Shown here piece after piece: positions 9,961-64,000 of a stretch of DNA of 64,000 nucleotides (position 1 is the stretch's first letter; each line of letters starts with the position of its first letter). The position numbers and the translations under genes were made by a program. The DNA comes from Escherichia coli (GTDB lineage Bacteria; Pseudomonadota; Gammaproteobacteria; Enterobacterales; Enterobacteriaceae): assembly GCF_050320075.1 (NCBI RefSeq), contig NZ_CP190018.1; one strand, given 5' to 3'. Under the pieces are notes generated by a model that was not told where the DNA came from, ran no database searches, and worked only from the letters and a program-made list of their open reading frames with translations.

Positions 9961-11209
9961 GAGTTCCCCGCGCCAGCGGGGATAAACCGTTTGCTGAGTG
10001 TGCATACACACTTGAACATCAGAGTTCCCCGCGCCAGCGGGGATAAACCGCTATCAGTAACAACCTGGTAAATATCGGTTTTGAGTTCCCCGCGCCAGCG
10101 GGGATAAACCGTTTTCGGGGCCATAAATGGCGCTCATTTATGTGAGTTCCCCGCGCCAGCGGGGATAAACCGGGAAAATAAACGCGTTATTCCTTGATGG
10201 GTGCGAGTTCCCCGCGCCAGCGGGGATAAACCGAGCAACAGGTATTTCATATGGCCTGCCGTGCTGAGTTCCCCGCGCCAGCGGGGATAAACCGGCCAGC
10301 GGCGCTGAGTACGACGACCTGATTAAGAGTTCCCCGCGCCAGCGGGGATAAACCGTCAATACAACAGCAATGCTGGAGCTGGAAAAAGAGTTCCCCGCGC
10401 CAGCGGGGATAAACCGTGGTGGGATAGCTGCTCTGCCAGCGTGTCGCGGAGTTCCCCGCGCCAGCGGGGATAAACCGTGGGCGCAGCTCATGTATTCCAA
10501 TAAGGATATGAGTTCCCCGCGCCAGCGGGGATAAACCGAGATTCGCGCAATGTACGGTAAAGACAGCACCGAGTTCCCCGCGCCAGCGGGGATAAACCGC
10601 CATTCTTGTTGTCGTTCATCAAGCGCAGGGGGAGTTTCCCGCGCCAGCGGGGATAAACCGTTTGTTTTGATGATTTATCAGTATATGAATTGGAGTTCCC
10701 CGCGCCAGCGGGGATAAACCGATTTTTGCGCGGCCTGCATGAAACCAGTGGCAAAGTTCCCCGCGCCAGCGGGGATAAACCGGTACCGTTGAGCAATGGT
10801 GGGTAAATGGTGCTGAGTTCCCCGCGCCAGCGGGGATAAACCGATTTAGATACGGCACACAGGAATGCGCTGGATGAGTTCCCCGCGCCAGCGGGGATAA
10901 ACCGCATGGGAGTCCAGATTACAAATTCCAGAATGGGAGTTCCCCGCGCCAGCGGGGATAAACCGCGCCAGTCTGAGGTTTTCCGGTCATACATCGTGAG
11001 TTCCCCGCGCCAGCGGGGATAAACCGACCGTTGCTACACATATGATCAGGCATGTGCCGAGTTCCCCGCGCCAGCGGGGATAAACCGGACGATGAGACGC
11101 CCTGGTGTGCCGCGTTCGTGAGTTCCCCGCGCCAGCGGGGATAAACCGCGTTTAGCTCCGCAATGTTGGATATCACTGATGAGTTCCCCGCACCAGCGGG
11201 AATAAACCA
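9961..11209 (+). CRISPR. CRISPR array A: 21 repeats of 29 bp (gagttccccgcgccagcggggataaaccg) and 20 spacers of 32 bp; terminal repeat degenerate
   Basis: exact 61-bp periodicity with repeat starts at 9961, 10022, 10083 ... 11120, 11181; variant repeats at 10632 (gagtttccc) and 10754 (aagttcc); last repeat gagttccccgcaccagcgggaataaaccac. Confidence 0.98.
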
Positions 11210-20350: not shown

Positions 20351-21124
<774 letters not shown>

Positions 21125-21228
21125 ATCAGCATACTTGTCCTTAGCCTTCTGCAGTGACAGCTGGTAGTACAGCGTGCTTCTGGCCAGCCCTGCAGCCTTT
21201 AACAGGTCAGACTGGCAGTGTCCGCACC

Positions 21229-21759
21229 TCAGGCTCCGGATGACTTTCGTTTTTTCTCCAGCTCCTGGCGCTTTTTTTCCAGGAGATGCTCCTGCATGGC
21301 TTTCAGATATGCATTTTCTGCGCGAAGATAACGTAGCTCATTCTTCATCTCTTCCGGCGTCATGTTTGCCTCGTTTTCATGGGTATCATCAGAACGGGTC
21401 ATGCTTTTCTCCTTCCTGCGCCTGATAAAGGCCTCATTACCAGATTTGCGGTAGCCTTTTATCCAGTTTTTAACCGTGTTGTGGCTGGGAATGTTAAACC
21501 GGGCAGCTACCCGGGGTAGAGACTCAGAATGCCCGAGAGCATAAAGAACCACGCAAAGTTTATCTTCAGGAGAATAGCTACGCTTGTGTCTGCAATCCAG
21601 TGCCCGAGGACCGTGAAGAAGAAAAAGATTAATCCAGTGTGAGAGGCTGGTGTGAGAAAGTTGAAAGAGTTTTGCCGTAGAAATGATGCCTGCATGACCA
21701 GCCAGGTAATGATTTACAGCGGCAAGTTTTACTTCAAATGAATGTTTCATAAACTGCAC
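21229..21759 (-). CDS. IS3-family transposase orfA (HTH plus leucine-zipper region)
   Basis: 176-aa ORF; A AAA AAG frameshift motif at about 21271..21279 (minus-strand ctggaaaaaaagcg) near its 3' end. Confidence 0.85.
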   Translation of the reverse strand: MQFMKHSFEVKLAAVNHYLAGHAGIISTAKLFQLSHTSLSHWINLFLLHGPRALDCRHKRSYSPEDKLCVVLYALGHSESLPRVAARFNIPSHNTVKNWIKGYRKSGNEAFIRRRKEKSMTRSDDTHENEANMTPEEMKNELRYLRAENAYLKAMQEHLLEKKRQELEKKRKSSGA

Positions 21760-38346: not shown

Positions 38347-38985
38347 GTGTTCCCCGCGTCAGCGGGGATAAACCGACAATCAGATCACGATCGATGCCTC
38401 GCGTGAGGTGTTCCCCGCGTCAGCGGGGATAAACCGATTTTCGCAGCGGGTAACCGCGCCCGGCGATCGTGTTCCCCGCGTCAGCGGGGATAAACCGTTT
38501 ATGTGGAGTATCAGTGCCTGGGTGGAAAGGTGTTCCCCGCGTCAGCGGGGATAAACCGTGGGGCTGAGCATGGCTAAACAACCGAGGCGCGTGTTCCCCG
38601 CGTCAGCGGGGATAAACCGGTCAACTGGCACCACAGGATGATGGCGGCGAAGTGTTCCCCGCGCCAGCGGGGATAAACCGCAGGTCGACCGACTGGAGGC
38701 GGAGATTGTCGGGTGTTCCCCGCGCCAGCGGGGATAAACCGTGTTGTTTTTCTGCCGGATTAACGCGGTGCGAGTGTTCCCCGCGCCAGCGGGGATAAAC
38801 CGTTGTCGGGCTTGTTCGGCGCGGGTTGTTAACTGTGTTCCCCGCGCCAGCGGGGATAAACCGCCAGCGAAGGACTTGCTCGTGTGGTTAAAGCCGTGTT
38901 CCCCGCGTCAGCGGGGATAAACCGGACGCACTGGATGCGATGATGGACATCACTTGGAGTTCCCCGCCCCTGCGGTAGAACTCCC
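38347..38985 (+). CRISPR. CRISPR array B: 11 repeats of 29 bp (gtgttccccgcg[t/c]cagcggggataaaccg), 10 spacers of 32 bp; terminal repeat degenerate
   Basis: 61-bp periodicity with repeat starts at 38347, 38408 ... 38896, 38957; last repeat gagttccccgcccctgcggtagaactccc. Confidence 0.98.
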
Positions 38986-50185: not shown

Positions 50186-50593
50186 CTATGTGTTCATCAT
50201 CTTGCGCACCAACTGCATAAACAGCTCCTGCTCTTCTGCACTCAAACGCCCCAAAAATTCCTCATCCACGCTGTCACCAATGGGGATCGCCGCAGCAAGT
50301 ACCTTTTCTCCTTCGGCAGTCAGCCAGACAAAGCGTCGCCGCTTGTCAGCGGCGTCATGTTCACGTCTGACTAAGCCACGATTTTCCATTCTTGCCAACA
50401 TTTCTGCCAGCGTTGCTTTGGTGCTGACTGCTGCTTCTATCAGTGCCACCTGTTCGATACCAGGCTTATCAGCAATGGCGCGCATCACCGCGTACTGTGG
50501 TTTGGTGAGGTCAGGTAACTCGTGCTGCCAGCGAGCCGTGTGCTGCTGAAAAAGCTGTCGTAACTGATGGAACGCTTTATTTCGTAACGCCAT
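50186..50593 (-). CDS. MarR/SlyA-family transcriptional regulator; start at MALRNKAF preceded by ggag
   Basis: winged-helix MarR-like sequence; divergent from the decarboxylase operon; ORF-track start at 50626 lacks a ribosome-binding site. Confidence 0.8.
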   Translation of the reverse strand: MALRNKAFHQLRQLFQQHTARWQHELPDLTKPQYAVMRAIADKPGIEQVALIEAAVSTKATLAEMLARMENRGLVRREHDAADKRRRFVWLTAEGEKVLAAAIPIGDSVDEEFLGRLSAEEQELFMQLVRKMMNT

Positions 50594-50739
50594 GTAAACT
50601 CCGGGCAAACTATCTGCCGCTATCATAGCGGTTTTTCAGTGACGAAGAAGATGTTGTTACTTTTCAGTGCTTGCCGCGATGAAAACAGAGGCGTATTTTA
50701 ATAATAACGTTCGTATACGAACAATTAAGAGAATAAACA

Positions 50740-51333
50740 ATGAGACTGATCGTCGGGATGACAGGGGCCACCGGAGCGCCTCTTGGTGTGGCATTACTGC
50801 AAGCGCTGCGGGAGATGCCGAATGTCGAGACTCATCTGGTGATGTCGAAGTGGGCGAAAACCACCATTGAACTGGAAACGCCTTACAACGCCCGCGATGT
50901 TGCTGCCCTCGCAGACTTCTGCCATAACCCGGCGGATCAGGCCGCAACCATCTCCTCAGGTTCCTTTCGTACCGACGGCATGATCGTTATTCCGTGCAGT
51001 ATGAAAACGCTCGCCGGTATCCGTGCCGGTTACGCCGATGGCCTGGTAGGGCGCGCGGCGGACGTCGTGCTCAAAGAAGGCCGCAAACTAGTGCTGGTGC
51101 CGCGTGAAATGCCGCTTAGCACCATCCATCTCGAAAATATGCTCGCACTTTCACGCATGGGCGTGGCGATGGTGCCGCCGATGCCTGCCTTTTATAACCA
51201 TCCCGAAACGGTAGATGACATTGTCCACCACGTGGTAGCCCGCGTGCTGGATCAATTTGGCCTCGAACATCCTCACGCCAGGCGCTGGCAAGGATTGCCG
51301 CAGGCCCGGAATTTTTCTCAGGAGAATGAATAA
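50740..51333 (+). CDS. UbiX/Pad1-family flavin prenyltransferase (decarboxylase B subunit)
   Basis: 197-aa ORF MRLIVGMTGATGAPLGVALLQAL... typical of UbiX flavoproteins. Confidence 0.88.
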   Translation: MRLIVGMTGATGAPLGVALLQALREMPNVETHLVMSKWAKTTIELETPYNARDVAALADFCHNPADQAATISSGSFRTDGMIVIPCSMKTLAGIRAGYADGLVGRAADVVLKEGRKLVLVPREMPLSTIHLENMLALSRMGVAMVPPMPAFYNHPETVDDIVHHVVARVLDQFGLEHPHARRWQGLPQARNFSQENE

Positions 51334-52760
51334 TGGCATTTGATGATTTACGCAGCTTTTTACAGGCGCTTGATGACCACGGCCAGTTACTGAAAATCAG
51401 CGAAGAGGTGAACGCGGAACCGGATCTGGCAGCCGCTGCCAACGCCACCGGACGTATCGGCGATGTTGCACCGGCGCTGTGGTTTGACAATATTCGCGGC
51501 TTTATCGATGCCCGCGTGGCAATGAACACCATCGGTTCCTGGCAGAACCACGCGATTTCCCTCGGCCTGCCGCCAAACACCCCGGTTAAAAAACAGATTG
51601 ATGAGTTTATCCGCCGCTGGGATAACTTCCCCATTGCCCCGGAGCGCCGCGCCAATCCAGCCTGGGCGCAGAACACCGTCGATGGCGACGAGATCAACCT
51701 GTTCGATATTCTGCCTCTGTTTCGTTTAAACGACGGTGATGGCGGTTTCTATCTCGACAAAGCGTGCGTGGTTTCCCGCGATCCGCTTGATCCGGATAAC
51801 TTCGGCAAGCAGAACGTCGGCATCTACCGTATGGAAGTGAAGGGTAAGCGTAAGCTCGGTCTGCAACCGGTGCCGATGCACGATATCGCCCTGCATCTGC
51901 ATAAAGCGGAAGAACGCGGTGAAGATCTGCCGATTGCCATCACACTCGGTAACGATCCGATCATCACCCTGATGGGGGCCACGCCGCTGAAATATGATCA
52001 GTCCGAGTACGAAATGGCAGGCGCGCTGCGTGAAAGCCCGTACCCGATCGCCACCGCCCCGCTGACTGGTTTTGATGTGCCGTGGGGTTCAGAAGTGATC
52101 CTCGAAGGGGTCATCGAAAGCCGTAAACGCGAAATCGAAGGGCCGTTTGGTGAGTTTACCGGGCACTACTCCGGCGGGCGTAACATGACCGTGGTGCGTA
52201 TCGATAAAGTCTCTTATCGCAGCAAACCCATTTTTGAATCGCTCTATCTCGGGATGCCGTGGACGGAAATCGACTACCTGATGGGGCCAGCCACCTGCGT
52301 GCCGCTGTATCAGCAACTGAAAGCCGAGTTCCCGGAAGTGCAGGCGGTAAATGCCATGTACACCCACGGCCTGCTGGCGATTATCTCCACCAAAAAACGC
52401 TACGGTGGCTTTGCCCGCGCGGTGGGCCTGCGTGCGATGACCACGCCACACGGTCTGGGCTACGTGAAGATGGTGATTATGGTCGATGAAGACGTTGATC
52501 CGTTCAACCTGCCGCAGGTGATGTGGGCGCTCTCTTCGAAAGTGAACCCGGCAGGGGATTTGGTGCAGTTGCCGAATATGTCCGTGCTGGAACTCGACCC
52601 CGGCTCAAGCCCGGCCGGTATCACCGACAAGCTGATTATCGACGCCACCACGCCTGTCGCCCCGGACAACCGTGGTCACTACAGCCAGCCGGTGGTGGAT
52701 TTACCGGAAACCAAAGCCTGGGCTGAAAAACTGACCGCTATGCTGGCCGCACGTAAATAA
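51333..52760 (+). CDS. UbiD-family (prenylated-FMN-dependent) aromatic acid decarboxylase (C subunit)
   Basis: 475-aa ORF, UbiD-like; start overlaps the stop of the UbiX-like gene. Confidence 0.88.
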   Translation: MAFDDLRSFLQALDDHGQLLKISEEVNAEPDLAAAANATGRIGDVAPALWFDNIRGFIDARVAMNTIGSWQNHAISLGLPPNTPVKKQIDEFIRRWDNFPIAPERRANPAWAQNTVDGDEINLFDILPLFRLNDGDGGFYLDKACVVSRDPLDPDNFGKQNVGIYRMEVKGKRKLGLQPVPMHDIALHLHKAEERGEDLPIAITLGNDPIITLMGATPLKYDQSEYEMAGALRESPYPIATAPLTGFDVPWGSEVILEGVIESRKREIEGPFGEFTGHYSGGRNMTVVRIDKVSYRSKPIFESLYLGMPWTEIDYLMGPATCVPLYQQLKAEFPEVQAVNAMYTHGLLAIISTKKRYGGFARAVGLRAMTTPHGLGYVKMVIMVDEDVDPFNLPQVMWALSSKVNPAGDLVQLPNMSVLELDPGSSPAGITDKLIIDATTPVAPDNRGHYSQPVVDLPETKAWAEKLTAMLAARK

Positions 52761-52770
52761 GGAGAACAAG

Positions 52771-53007
52771 ATGATTTGTCCACGTTGTGCTGATGAACAG
52801 ATTGAAGTGATGGCGAAATCGCCGGTAAAAGATGTCTGGACGGTCTACCAGTGCCAGCATTGCCTCTATACCTGGCGCGATACCGAACCGCTACGCCGCA
52901 CCAGCCGCGAACATTATCCCGAAGCGTTCCGCATGACACAGAAAGATATTGATGACGCGCCGATGGTGCCGAGCATCCCGCCGCTGCTGGCGGAAGGTAA
53001 GCGCTAA
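52771..53007 (+). CDS. small Zn-ribbon-type subunit of the hydroxyarylic acid decarboxylase (D subunit)
   Basis: 78-aa ORF with CPRC ... CQHC cysteine pairs, directly downstream of the UbiD-like gene. Confidence 0.75.
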   Translation: MICPRCADEQIEVMAKSPVKDVWTVYQCQHCLYTWRDTEPLRRTSREHYPEAFRMTQKDIDDAPMVPSIPPLLAEGKR

Positions 53008-53010
53008 ATA

Positions 53011-59857: not shown

Positions 59858-62419
59858 TTACACCAGACTCTTCAAGCGATAAATCCACTCCAGCGCCTGA
59901 CGCGGAGTCAGTGAATCCGGGTCGAGATTTTCCAGTGCTTCGACCGCAGGCGACGTTTCTTCTGGCACTGACAGCAAAGACATTTGCGTACCATCCACTT
60001 GCGTAGCGGCGGCGTTCGGCGAAATGCTTTCCAACTCACGCAGTTTTTGCCGTGCGCGCTTAATAACCTCTTTTGGCACGCCGGCCAGAGCTGCAACCGC
60101 CAGGCCGTAGCTTTTGCTCGCCGCGCCATCCTGCACGCTGTGCATAAAGGCAATGGTGTCGCCGTGCTCCAGCGCATCGAGATGCACGTTGGCGACGCCT
60201 TCCATTTTCTCCGGTAACTGGGTCAGCTCGAAATAGTGGGTGGCAAACAGTGTCAACGCTTTAATCTTATTCGCCAGATTTTCCGCGCACGCCCACGCCA
60301 GCGACAGACCATCGTAAGTGGACGTCCCGCGCCCAATCTCATCCATCAGCACCAGACTGTACTCGGTGGCGTTATGTAAAATATTGGCGGTTTCGGTCAT
60401 TTCCACCATAAAGGTTGAACGCCCGGATGCCAGATCATCCGCTGCCCCTACGCGGGTAAAGATGCGATCGATAGGTCCAATCTCGACTTTTTGTGCCGGT
60501 ACATAGCTGCCGATGTAGGCCATCAGCGCAATCAGTGCGGTCTGGCGCATATAGGTACTTTTACCGCCCATATTCGGACCGGTAATGATCAACATGCGAC
60601 GCTGCGGCGACAGGTTCAGCGGGTTGGCGATAAACGGCTCATTCAGCACCTGTTCAACCACCGGATGGCGGCCTTCGGTGATGCGAATACCCGGTTTATC
60701 AATAAAGGTCGGGCAGGTGTAGTTCAGCGTATAGGCCCGTTCTGCCAGGTTCACCAGCACGTCGAGTTCCGCCAGCGCGCTCGCGCTCTGTTGCAACGCT
60801 TCCAGATGCGGCAACAGCAGGTCGAACAACTCTTCATAAAGCTGTTTTTCCAGTGCCAGTGCTTTGCCTTTTGAAGTGAGAACTTTGTCTTCGTACTCTT
60901 TTAGCTCTGGAATAATGTAGCGTTCGGCGTTTTTCAGCGTCTGGCGGCGCATGTAGTTAATCGGTGCCAGATGGCTTTGTCCACGGCTGATCTGAATGTA
61001 ATAACCATGCACCGCGTTAAATCCGACTTTCAGCGTGTCCAGGCCGGTACGTTCACGCTCGCGGACTTCCAGACGCTCCAGATAATCGGTCGCGCCGTCA
61101 GCCAGCGCGCGCCACTCATCCAGCTCTTCGTTATAGCCCGATGCGATAACACCACCGTCGCGCACCAGTACCGGCGGTGTGTCGATAATGGCCCGCTCCA
61201 GCAGATCGCGCAGTTCGGCAAACTCACCCATCTTCTCACGCAGCGCCTGTACCGGAGCGCTATCGACATTTTCTAACTGCGCACGCAGCTCCGGCAGTTG
61301 CTGGAAAGCGTGACGCATACGGGCCAGATCGCGTGGGCGAGCAGTTCGTAAAGCCAGACGTGCCAGAATACGTTCCAGGTCGCCGACCTGACGCAGCACC
61401 GGCTGTAGCTCGGCGGTGAAATCCTGCAATGCGCCAATAGTTTGCTGGCGCTCAAGCAACACGCGGGTATCGCGCACTGGCATATGCAGCCAGCGTTTCA
61501 GCATACGACTACCCATTGGCGTTACAGTGCAGTCGAGCACTGAAGCCAGCGTGTTTTCCGCACCGCCCGCCAGGTTCTGAGTAATTTCCAGGTTACGACG
61601 TGTCGCGGCATCCATAATGATGCTGTCCTGCTCACGTTCCATGGTGATAGAACGAATATGCGGCAGGGTCGTACGTTGGGTATCTTTCGCATACTGCAAC
61701 AGACAACCGGCAGCACAAAGTCCGCGCGGCGCGTTCTCGACGCCAAAACCGACCAGATCGCGGGTGCCAAATTGCAGATTCAACTGCTGGCGCGCGGTGT
61801 CGATTTCAAACTCCCACAGCGGGCGACGGCGCAGGCCGCGACGGCCTTCAATTAACGACATTTCAGCAAAATCTTCTGCATACAGCAGTTCCGCCGGATT
61901 AGTGCGTTGCAGTTCTGCCGCCATCGTTTCGCGGTCAGCCGGTTCGCTCAGGCGAAAACGACCGGAACTGATATCCAGCGTCGCGTAGCCGAAACCTTTG
62001 CTGTCCTGCCAGATAGCCGCCAGCAGGTTGTCCTGACGCTCCTGCAACAGGGCTTCATCGCTGATGGTGCCTGGCGTAACGATACGCACAACTTTGCGCT
62101 CAACCGGACCTTTGCTGGTCGCCGGATCGCCAATTTGTTCGCAGATGGCAACGGACTCGCCCTGATTCACCAGTTTGGCGAGGTAGTTTTCCACCGCATG
62201 GTAGGGGATCCCCGCCATCGGGATCGGCTCTCCCGCGGAAGCACCGCGTTTGGTCAGTGAAATATCCAGCAGCTGCGAGGCGCGTTTCGCGTCGTCATAA
62301 AACAGTTCGTAAAAGTCACCCATCCGATAGAACAGCAGGATCTCGGGATGCTGGGCTTTCAGCTTGAGATACTGCTGCATCATGGGCGTATGGGCATCGA
62401 AATTTTCTATTGCACTCAT
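59858..62419 (-). CDS. mutS: DNA mismatch repair protein MutS
   Basis: 853-aa [43 protein letters not shown]..., Walker [10 protein letters not shown]. Confidence 0.98.
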
Positions 62420-62705
62420 GGGGTTATGTCCGGTTCCCTGATATTAAATGGGGTGTGATGGTTTTTATTTTCGTTGTAATCACATAAGGCGCACATGATA
62501 CCGGAGTTAATCATTTCAGGGGAAGAAGCGAACGGCGAGTTCTTGATGCTGGTTCCGGGAAAGATGCTGTTTTGCAGCTTTTGCGTGATGCTTATGAAGC
62601 AAGTACGCAAAATTGTATCGGTTGGCTAACCCTTCTTCTTTAGAGTCATAGTGCCCTTTAAGATTAAGTTGTAATATAAATGCATCTTAATGAGATGGAG
62701 GCAGC

Positions 62706-63050
62706 ATGTCCGGCAAGCGTATCTCTCGTGAAAAACTGACGATTAAAAAAATGATCGATCTTTATCAAGCGAAATGCCCGCAGGCGTCAGCGGAGCCGGA
62801 GCATTATGAGACGTTGTTTACTTACGCGCAAAAGCGGCTGGATAAATGTGTGTTCGGCGAAGAGAAACCAGCCTGTAAGCAGTGTCCGGTGCACTGTTAC
62901 CAGCCTGCAAAGCGTGAAGAGATGAAACAGATTATGCGTTGGGCTGGGCCGCGAATGCTGTGGCGTCATCCGATCTTAACCGTGCGTCATCTCATCGATG
63001 ACAAGCGTCCGGTGCCGGAGTTGCCAGAAAAATATCGTCCAAAGAAATAA
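62706..63050 (+). CDS. ygbA: nitrous-oxide-stimulated-promoter family Cys-rich protein YgbA
   Basis: 114-aa ORF with CxxxC pairs (KCPQ ... CKQCPVHCYQ). Confidence 0.8.
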   Translation: MSGKRISREKLTIKKMIDLYQAKCPQASAEPEHYETLFTYAQKRLDKCVFGEEKPACKQCPVHCYQPAKREEMKQIMRWAGPRMLWRHPILTVRHLIDDKRPVPELPEKYRPKK

Positions 63051-63088
63051 ATCTGCCGGAGAGCCATACTCTCCGGCAAATAAGGCGC

Positions 63089-63517
63089 TTACGCTTTGGT
63101 GGCAATCAGGATGGCTGATGCTTTGATCAATGCAATAACGCGCGAGCCAGTGGTGAGTTTCATTTCATCCTGACTTTCATTTGTTACCACTGCCACAATT
63201 TCAAAACCCGCATCCGTTTTGATATGGACAGTGGCGTTCACTGCGCCTTCGGTGATTGTCGACACGCTGCCAGCAAACTGGTTGCGAGCAGAGAATTTCA
63301 GTCCACAGTCTTCCGTTGCCAGCGTTACCCACGGGGCTTTAATCAGGGCAATCGCTTCTTTCCCTTTCGCCAGACCCAGCGCTTGCTGGCTGCTGTGAGT
63401 CACAATTGCCACCAGCTTTGCACCACCTGCCAGCGTCAGTTCTACTTCATCATTCACAGCGCCCATTGCTACTGCGCTAACTGTTCCGGTTAATTGATTT
63501 CTTGCTGAAACTGCCAT
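63089..63517 (-). CDS. tandem TOBE-domain molybdate-binding (Mop-like) protein; start at MAVSARNQ preceded by aggagg
   Basis: 142 aa made of two about 70-aa repeats (ARNQLTGTVSAV ... / ARNQFAGSVSTI ...), the TOBE/Mop signature. Confidence 0.75.
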   Translation of the reverse strand: MAVSARNQLTGTVSAVAMGAVNDEVELTLAGGAKLVAIVTHSSQQALGLAKGKEAIALIKAPWVTLATEDCGLKFSARNQFAGSVSTITEGAVNATVHIKTDAGFEIVAVVTNESQDEMKLTTGSRVIALIKASAILIATKA

Positions 63518-63561
63518 ACTGCCTCCTTTCATTGAACGTTGATCGAGTATAACCACATCTG

Positions 63562-64000
63562 TTAAATCAATGCCGATTTATCAATTCCCAGTCGCTTCAT
63601 CCGTGACAGCAGGGTCGTGCGTTTCAGCCCCAGACGTTGCGCAGCGCCTTTAGGCCCGGCAACCACGCCGTTGGTTTCTTTCAGCACGCGAACAATCAAC
63701 TGATATTCATCTTCGCCCTCCTGGGCGACAACCGTTGCGGCAGGCGGCGTTTCAGGCTCCGGTAAAGCAATATCTGGCAGTGACAGCTGCAGCACGTTGC
63801 CGCGTGTTAGCAATACCGCGCGCTCAATGACGTTTTCCAGTTCGCGTACGTTACCCGGCCACTCCATGTTGCTCAAGGTGCGCAGCGTCTCGGCAGGAAT
63901 GCTGTCGATATTGCGCCCGAGACGACGGGCAATTTTGAAGGTAAAGGCTTTCGCCAGCAGCGGAATATCTTCCGGACGCTCGCGTAGTGGCGGCAGGTGG
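63562..64000 (-). CDS. fhlA: formate hydrogenlyase transcriptional activator FhlA, C-terminal part (sigma-54 activator AAA+ end and HTH); N-terminus lies beyond the window
   Basis: frame is open to the window edge; IPLLAKAFTFKIARRLGRNIDSIPAETLRTL ... GNVRELENVIERAV ... HTH tail. Confidence 0.85.
   Translation of the reverse strand, partial: HLPPLRERPEDIPLLAKAFTFKIARRLGRNIDSIPAETLRTLSNMEWPGNVRELENVIERAVLLTRGNVLQLSLPDIALPEPETPPAATVVAQEGEDEYQLIVRVLKETNGVVAGPKGAAQRLGLKRTTLLSRMKRLGIDKSALI

Follow-up and report, generated by a model that had tools for sequence, protein, structure and literature searches.

The DNA analyzed here (hereafter the window) is a stretch of 64,000 nucleotides of Escherichia coli, taken from contig NZ_CP190018.1. 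Near one end of the window, the six-frame list of open reading frames and their translation gave a reading frame of 142 aa plus a stop codon on the minus strand at 63089..63517. This mop/modG-like coding sequence, hereafter mop, encodes two Mop/TOBE domains (residues ~1-69 and ~73-141), and its product is identical to RefSeq WP_000301062.1. The stop codon of fhlA (63562-63564) lies 44 bp upstream on the same strand, which agrees with the preliminary description of this locus, where mop had been placed immediately downstream of fhlA. The 3' end of fhlA (63562..64000, minus strand), encoding the AAA+ lid and the Fis-type HTH, runs out of the window and belongs to the upstream gene of a presumed hypABCDE-fhlA-mop unit. 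The fhlA fragment is annotated as the formate hydrogenlyase activator, under the RefSeq spelling 'flhA', in an E. coli genome that shows no difference from the window in this stretch. On the other side, mop is convergent with ygbA (62706..63050, plus strand; PF11756, E 6e-41), which encodes 114 aa here and 117 aa in K-12.

The start codon of mop is the ATG at 63515-63517. A Shine-Dalgarno sequence, AAAGGAGG, is located 4 nt 5' of it (63522..63529, minus strand), and the GGAGG core was invariant in an alignment of the mop upstream region from 14 genera. With this start, the ligand residues Ser4 and Arg6 sit at the canonical N-terminal distance of the family. All 46 Enterobacterales orthologues, taken from related loci, are 142 aa long and share the N-terminus M-[AST]-[VI]-SARNQ. 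A longer reading of 155 aa from the GTG at 63556 was rejected, because the N-termini of the orthologues and the position of the Shine-Dalgarno sequence favor the ATG.

Among the 46 orthologue sequences, 59 of the 142 positions were invariant. The synonymous divergence of mop from its orthologues grows with taxonomic distance, and dN/dS stays at 0.03-0.12. These facts place the reading frame far beyond chance; mop is a genuine and intact gene under purifying selection.

Transcription signals around mop

The 44-bp spacer between fhlA and mop (63518..63561, minus strand) contained no terminator-like hairpin, either in a consensus scan or on folding against shuffled sequences (z = +0.34). In contrast, an intrinsic-terminator hairpin with a 14-bp stem directly follows the mop stop codon (63051..63081, minus strand; dG -25.4 kcal/mol, z -4.5) in the gap shared with ygbA. 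None of 200 shuffled sequences was as stable, and the hairpin is followed by the U-rich tail AUUUAUUUCUUU. The arrangement suggests that mop is the last gene of the hypABCDE-fhlA unit and is probably transcribed by read-through from fhlA.

No sigma-70 consensus promoter was found by the consensus scan at 62300-64000. The spacer holds a TATACT hexamer (63546-63551, minus strand) that is conserved in Escherichia and Citrobacter, 34 nt 5' of the mop ATG, and recurs 46 nt upstream in Kluyvera. It is a candidate -10 element with no acceptable -35; the nearest candidate, TTGATT, is 13 nt off. FhlA is a sigma-54 activator. A sigma-54 promoter was rejected by eye, because the conserved TGGYTATACT does not fit TGGCAC-N5-TTGC. 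A separate weak promoter of mop is nevertheless possible, at least in some genera, in view of the conserved TATACT and of a terminator-like hairpin that lies between fhlA and mop in Lelliottia. In K-12, a hairpin homologous to the one after mop directly follows fhlA. ModE control of mop found no support, since the whole window gave no match to the modA-operator-like palindrome CGTTATAT-N8-ATATAACG with up to 3 mismatches.

Protein family, fold and ligand residues

The preliminary description had proposed a di-TOBE, Mop-like protein of 142 aa, and the profile searches bore this out. The Pfam profile PF03459 (TOBE) matched in two stretches (E 8.8e-35; 119 bits against a cutoff of 22.3), as did the NCBIfam profile TIGR00638 ('Mop'; E 4.1e-42). 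Together, these stretches span residues 2-141, and no further domain was found, as expected of a ModG-type molbindin of ~14-15 kDa. The two halves of the protein share 30 identities in a global alignment. In a sequence search of all PDB chains, the best match was ModG of Azotobacter vinelandii (1H9J/1H9K/1H9M), with residues 1-140 of the query aligned to residues 4-143 of the chain (E 5e-33). It was followed by ModE of E. coli, matched in the di-Mop domain (E ~1e-15), and by the single-domain Mop and Tub proteins (E ~1e-9).

An AlphaFold2 model of the mop protein was built from an alignment of 22 sequences, which includes ModG and homologues of 40-46% identity from Burkholderiales and Fibrobacteres. 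This predicted structure has a mean pLDDT of 96.4 and a pTM of 0.87. The top Foldseek matches to the model in the PDB were again 1H9J/1H9K/1H9M (TM 0.94-0.95, rmsd 1.3-1.4 Å), followed by ModE (TM 0.88-0.90). The predicted structure has the ModG fold, in which two OB-like beta-barrel Mop domains are intertwined.

The residues that bind the oxyanion in this family are described in the 2025 structure paper on Eubacterium limosum Tub (PMC11980592). In Tub, Mop and ModG, the buried inter-subunit site is formed by Ser4, Arg6, Lys60 and Ala61 together with Ser40 of the neighboring subunit, and the axial site on the three-fold axis is formed by the backbone of Ala20-Val21-Asn22 (PMC11980592). The mop protein has the corresponding set at the same positions in domain 1 (S4, R6, T40, K60, A61 and A20-V21-N22), and the counterparts in domain 2 are S76, R78, T112, K132, A133 and A92-V93-N94. 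In the 22-sequence alignment, the buried-site residues of both domains are invariant or nearly so, and the G19-A20-V21-N22 and G91-A92-V93-N94 loops are at least 90% conserved. The roles given to these residues are borrowed from the homologue Tub and from the structures of ModE, and not from a structure of the mop protein itself.

Comparison with ModG, ModE and single-domain molbindins

ModG of A. vinelandii, like the mop protein, consists of two fused Mop/TOBE domains in about 140 aa, with nothing besides. The two proteins are 48% identical end to end (68 of 142 positions in a global alignment), the predicted fold matches that of ModG with a TM of 0.95 and an rmsd of 1.3 Å, and in each protein both domains carry the ligands of the buried site as well as the axial A-V-N loops. 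As far as can be judged in silico from the protein itself, that is, from its architecture, sequence, predicted fold and two ligand sites, the mop product is a ModG-type molbindin. The context of the gene is different. The context of modG is related to mod transport and nitrogenase, whereas mop has a hyp-fhlA context (hydrogenase maturation and the formate hydrogenlyase regulator). According to PMC11980592 (its ref. 41), modG of A. vinelandii is under ModE control. The mod linkage and ModE repression of this type member have no apparent counterpart at the present locus, where the neighbors are hypA-E, fhlA and ygbA and no ModE-operator-like site was found in the window. The host of mop, moreover, is not a nitrogen fixer.

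The C-terminal di-Mop domain of E. coli ModE (1H9S, 1O7L, 1B9M) also has a tandem of Mop domains, with 34-36% identity to the mop protein and a TM of 0.88-0.90. The molybdate ligands in domain 1 of ModE, which we take to be Ser126, Arg128, Thr163, Ser166, Lys183 and Ala184, align with S4, R6, T40, S43, K60 and A61 of the mop protein, respectively. There are, however, three differences. The N-terminal winged-helix DNA-binding domain of ModE is absent from the mop protein, which begins at the first Mop domain. The second domain of ModE is degenerate (NADNQ, FNAD), whereas that of the mop protein has the full SARNQ and K-A set. Finally, ModE lacks the A-V-N loops that are present in the mop protein. 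Since ModE has neither these loops nor an intact ligand set in its domain 2, the mop protein, judged from its sequence and predicted structure, more closely resembles the storage-type proteins ModG and Mop than the sensor domain of ModE.

The single-domain molbindins, MopII of Clostridium pasteurianum (1GUG), Mop of Sporomusa ovata (1FR3) and Tub of E. limosum (9BEB), represent the same domain. Ser4, Arg6, Ala20-Val21-Asn22, Ser/Thr40, Lys60 and Ala61 are found at equal positions, and each half of the mop protein matches them at E ~1e-9 with a TM of ~0.9 per domain. These proteins, however, are only ~70 aa long and form hexamers, whereas in mop two domains are fused in one chain.

Two other identities were considered and rejected. 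The ModE profile NF007957, which has a cutoff of 369 bits, scored 88 and matched at profile positions 124-261 alone, and there is no DNA-binding domain. For a ModC-type ABC ATPase, the profile TIGR02142 (modC_ABC) requires 285 bits and reached 47, and its match was confined to the final ~60 positions. The database labels 'transporter', 'modE' and 'molybdate transport system regulatory protein' are misnomers for mop. The first is inappropriate because the protein is not a ModC-type ATPase, and the other two because the winged-helix domain is missing, the second Mop domain is intact and the A-V-N loops are present. An accurate name would be 'ModG-type molybdate-binding protein'.

Distribution in E. 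coli and the K-12-type allele

A megablast search with the 429-nt gene found mop in 1892 of 5426 complete E. coli genomes, always as a single chromosomal copy. The match covered at least 80% of the gene in 1889 genomes and was at least 99% identical in 1486; these genome counts carry the bias of sequencing. Between fhlA and ygbA, the gene is annotated as 'TOBE domain-containing protein' or 'molybdopterin-binding protein'. The exact protein occurs on at least 1000 contigs, and the same sequence is present in the uropathogenic strain F11.

A 131-nt probe for the K-12-type junction, which lacks mop, was complete in 3505 of the 5426 genomes, including K-12, BL21, O157:H7 and O8:H8 strains, with an identity of at least 97.7% in the sampled full-coverage rows. 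The alleles with and without mop (hereafter mop+ and mop-) together account for 5394 of the 5426 genomes, and the deletion has a single junction type. In the K-12-type strain JME66, ygbA and fhlA are 36 bp apart. The segment missing from K-12-type genomes is ~470 bp long (63089..63561), with junctions at the stop codons of fhlA and mop, and a cluster of substitutions lies alongside (63017-63071). In the preliminary description, K-12 was not known to have a gene at this site, and a synteny comparison with K-12 and a profile search for the TOBE domain were proposed as checks. Both were run; the former confirmed the 36-bp spacing of fhlA and ygbA in K-12-type genomes, and the latter recovered the TOBE signature, so that neither of the two outcomes named there as refuting was observed.

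The mop gene is already known: annotations of it exist for thousands of genomes, structures of its family have been characterized, and two papers mention that it is present in some strains and absent from others. Ewers et al. 2014 (PMC4209514) list c3292 of CFT073 as a 'putative molybdenum-pterin-binding protein' and give the fhlA-mutS amplicon as 1,673 bp in CFT073 versus 1,208 bp in MG1655 and EDL933. Lerminiaux et al. state that K-12 and O157:H7 carry ygbA alone at the fhlA-mutS site. In the literature searched for molbindin, ModG and TOBE in E. coli and for c3292, there were passing mentions alone, and we found no binding, oligomer or expression data, nor any experiment, on the mop protein or an enterobacterial orthologue.

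Loss of 470 bp alone does not turn the mop+ allele into the mop- allele. Beside the junction, the two also differ at about 20 substitution or indel positions, which are clustered within ~55 bp (window 63017-63088 compared with locus L002, 3598-3676, and with locus L010). In this comparison, the C-terminus of YgbA reads ...KKPHE (117 aa) in the mop- allele and ...KK (114 aa) in the mop+ allele, and the stem of the terminator is GCCGGACAG/CTGTCCGGC in the former and GCCGGAGAG/CTCTCCGGC in the latter. At several of the substituted positions, the K-12 allele agrees with Citrobacter amalonaticus and not with the mop+ alleles of Escherichia. The pattern suggests either two old haplotypes or an import by recombination. 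The locus is a known recombination hot spot.

Two further lesions were seen at the same locus. In E. coli p4A (locus L053, 6204-6210), ygbA, mop and the 3' end of fhlA are deleted, and fhlA is annotated as a pseudogene. In E. coli EC16, an IS26 family transposase is annotated inside the fhlA-mop-ygbA stretch, and the match falls into two pieces. Both lesions are independent and secondary.

Synteny and ancestry

With each bacterial species represented by a single genome, a scan gave 49 loci, the neighbors of which were mapped by tblastn with the proteins of the window. In 36 of the 49 loci, hypD-hypE-fhlA lies directly upstream of mop. These include loci of E. albertii and another Escherichia species, and of Citrobacter, Pseudocitrobacter, Klebsiella, Raoultella, Kluyvera, Enterobacter, Lelliottia, Pluralibacter, Yokenella and Kosakonia. 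In 3 further loci (Phytobacter, Kosakonia sp. S29), hypE is directly upstream of mop.

The nucleotide identity of mop is 92% with E. albertii and 82% with C. amalonaticus. For the flanks, the respective values are 94% and 79% for ygbA, and 82% and 70% for the 3' end of fhlA. In both E. albertii and Citrobacter, mop has thus diverged in keeping with its flanks. A recent horizontal insertion was rejected on the basis of this agreement and of the synteny across genera. Conserved synteny, flank-like divergence and low dN/dS all indicate that mop is an ancestral gene under purifying selection; on these genomic comparisons, it is ancestral to Enterobacteriaceae at the fhlA site, and K-12 represents a derived loss. 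The preliminary description had regarded mop as wedged between ygbA and fhlA and as possibly strain-specific. Neither view can be retained, since the synteny points to a deletion in K-12 instead and the gene is carried by 1889 of the 5426 complete E. coli genomes as well as by the other genera.

The linkage to fhlA is not universal. Serratia, Cedecea, Edwardsiella and Salmonella have a homologue in unrelated contexts: the neighbors are an ACT-domain protein and an AsnC regulator in Serratia, an aldehyde dehydrogenase and an alginate lyase-like protein in Cedecea, and a HAD hydrolase and an amino-acid permease in Edwardsiella. No common theme was found among the neighbors in these three sets of loci, which were taken as lying outside Enterobacteriaceae. 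In some Salmonella serovars, a di-TOBE gene of 87-89% identity is present away from fhlA (two S. enterica assemblies, L055 and L056, 6001-6429), in an island that also holds fimbrial usher and chaperone genes of the PapC/PapD type and an IS66 TnpB. The di-TOBE gene is thus occasionally mobile.

Proposed function of the mop product

We consider it likely that the mop product is a ModG-type molbindin which serves as a cytoplasmic buffer of molybdate or tungstate, probably as a trimer, and that mop is an ancestral gene after hypABCDE-fhlA which was lost from K-12-type genomes by a ~470-bp deletion. By analogy with ModG, three di-Mop chains would assemble into a trimer in which the Mop domains form a pseudo-hexamer. 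This assembly would bind up to eight molybdate or tungstate ions, six of them buried between domains and two on the three-fold axis, and would act as an intracellular buffer or store of these oxyanions. The stoichiometry and role of ModG are summarized in PMC11980592. With read-through from fhlA, the mop protein would be made while the formate hydrogenlyase machinery is being assembled.

Formate dehydrogenase H of formate hydrogenlyase requires the molybdenum cofactor, and the mop protein could keep molybdate available for it; we infer this role in molybdenum supply only from the position of the gene. A single ~470-bp deletion removed mop from the lineage with K-12, BL21 and O157:H7. Since K-12 makes active formate hydrogenlyase without mop, the gene is dispensable and not essential for this complex.

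There are other possible interpretations. The mop protein, as a di-Mop protein without a DNA-binding domain, might compete with ModE for molybdate or make contact with ModE or FhlA, and thereby tune hyc, fdhF and mod to molybdenum. Transcription of hyc and fdhF in E. coli responds to molybdate via ModE, and Mop of Rhodobacter capsulatus has been reported to interact with the ModE-like regulators MopA and MopB. The position of mop directly after the regulator gene fhlA in 36 of the 49 species loci would suit such a regulatory partner, and so would the similarity of the protein to the sensor domain of ModE, which it matches at 34-36% identity and on which it can be superposed. With 48% identity and a TM of 0.95, however, ModG of the storage type is nearer to the protein than ModE is, and the axial A-V-N loops of the protein are typical of the hexamer-type storage proteins and missing from ModE. 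Moreover, K-12 shows molybdenum-responsive regulation of hyc without mop. We therefore regard a regulatory partner as unlikely.

A broader proposal would be that mop, being made together with FhlA, links the oxyanion status of the cell to the formate regulon, either by delivering or withholding molybdate or by trapping tungstate, with effects on the maturation of formate dehydrogenase H or on FhlA/ModE-dependent transcription of hyc and fdhF. We hold this to be quite unlikely. If it were true, the metabolism of hydrogen and formate at the trace levels of molybdenum and tungsten in the gut or the urinary tract would not be the same in mop+ lineages (B2, F, E. albertii, Citrobacter, Klebsiella) as in mop- lineages (K-12, O157).

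Alternatively, the mop protein might mainly sequester tungstate, in the manner of a 'TudG', and either store tungsten or shield formate dehydrogenase H and other molybdoenzymes from its mis-incorporation. Mop-family sites take tungstate and molybdate alike, E. limosum Tub stores tungsten in vivo, and the ligand set of the mop protein is that of Tub. The di-TOBE 'TudG/ModG' architectures are present in more gut species that are predicted to use tungsten than in those predicted to use molybdenum (PMC11980592). The preference for tungsten or molybdenum, however, is inseparable by sequence. E. coli, moreover, is not known to have the dedicated tungstate importer TupABC or obligate tungstoenzymes. 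A tungstate trap seems very unlikely to us. The view that mop is a neutral passenger heading for loss, as in K-12, is most improbable: although one deletion took it from ~65% of sequenced E. coli at no obvious cost and it was lost again with ygbA and the 3' end of fhlA in p4A, this view is contradicted by the selection data (dN/dS 0.03-0.12), by the orthologues in Enterobacterales, 46 of 46 of which have the full 142 aa and keep the ligand residues and the Shine-Dalgarno core unchanged, and by the 1889 of 1892 E. coli matches that span at least 80% of the 429-nt gene.

The mop gene is an ordinary catalogued gene and represents no new kind of system. It is worth noting that K-12 is unrepresentative at the fhlA-ygbA junction, where it carries a derived deletion of a conserved gene of Enterobacteriaceae. 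The presence or absence of mop is a natural polymorphism that falls into two clean alleles among thousands of genomes.

Other features of the window

The gap between rpoS and ygbN (window ~50190-53010) contains a MarR/SlyA-like regulator and the hydroxyarylic acid decarboxylase genes kpdBCD, as identified by 99.99% identity to locus L057. Ewers et al. 2014 (PMC4209514) call this structure 'pattern IV'; in their study, the long (mop+) fhlA-mutS amplicon was confined to B2 strains of 'pattern III'. Since the window carries both the kpdBCD pattern and mop, the mop+ allele also occurs on a pattern IV background.

In the gap between mutS and ygbA, a 44-aa open reading frame (62495-62629, plus strand) corresponds to the RefSeq hypothetical protein WP_000611932.1. 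This gap is 87.5% identical to that of the B2 strain F11 and 98.6% identical to that of K-12.

Two CRISPR arrays (window ~10170-10940 and ~38380-38650) flank the type I-E genes cas3-casABCDE-cas1-cas2, according to the annotation of the near-identical genome CFSAN061763. The arrays are the sole departures from CFSAN061763; the rest of the window is at least 99.95% identical to it, and the last 7.6 kb are 100% identical. Because the differences are confined to the CRISPR arrays, the window comes from a close relative of CFSAN061763 with other spacers. An IS3-family transposase gene with a programmed frameshift lies between ygcQ and ygcP (window ~20400-21750; alignment to locus L054, 20220-21568). 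Between cysH and cas3, the annotation of the near-identical genome places a toxin gene of the Hok/Gef family.
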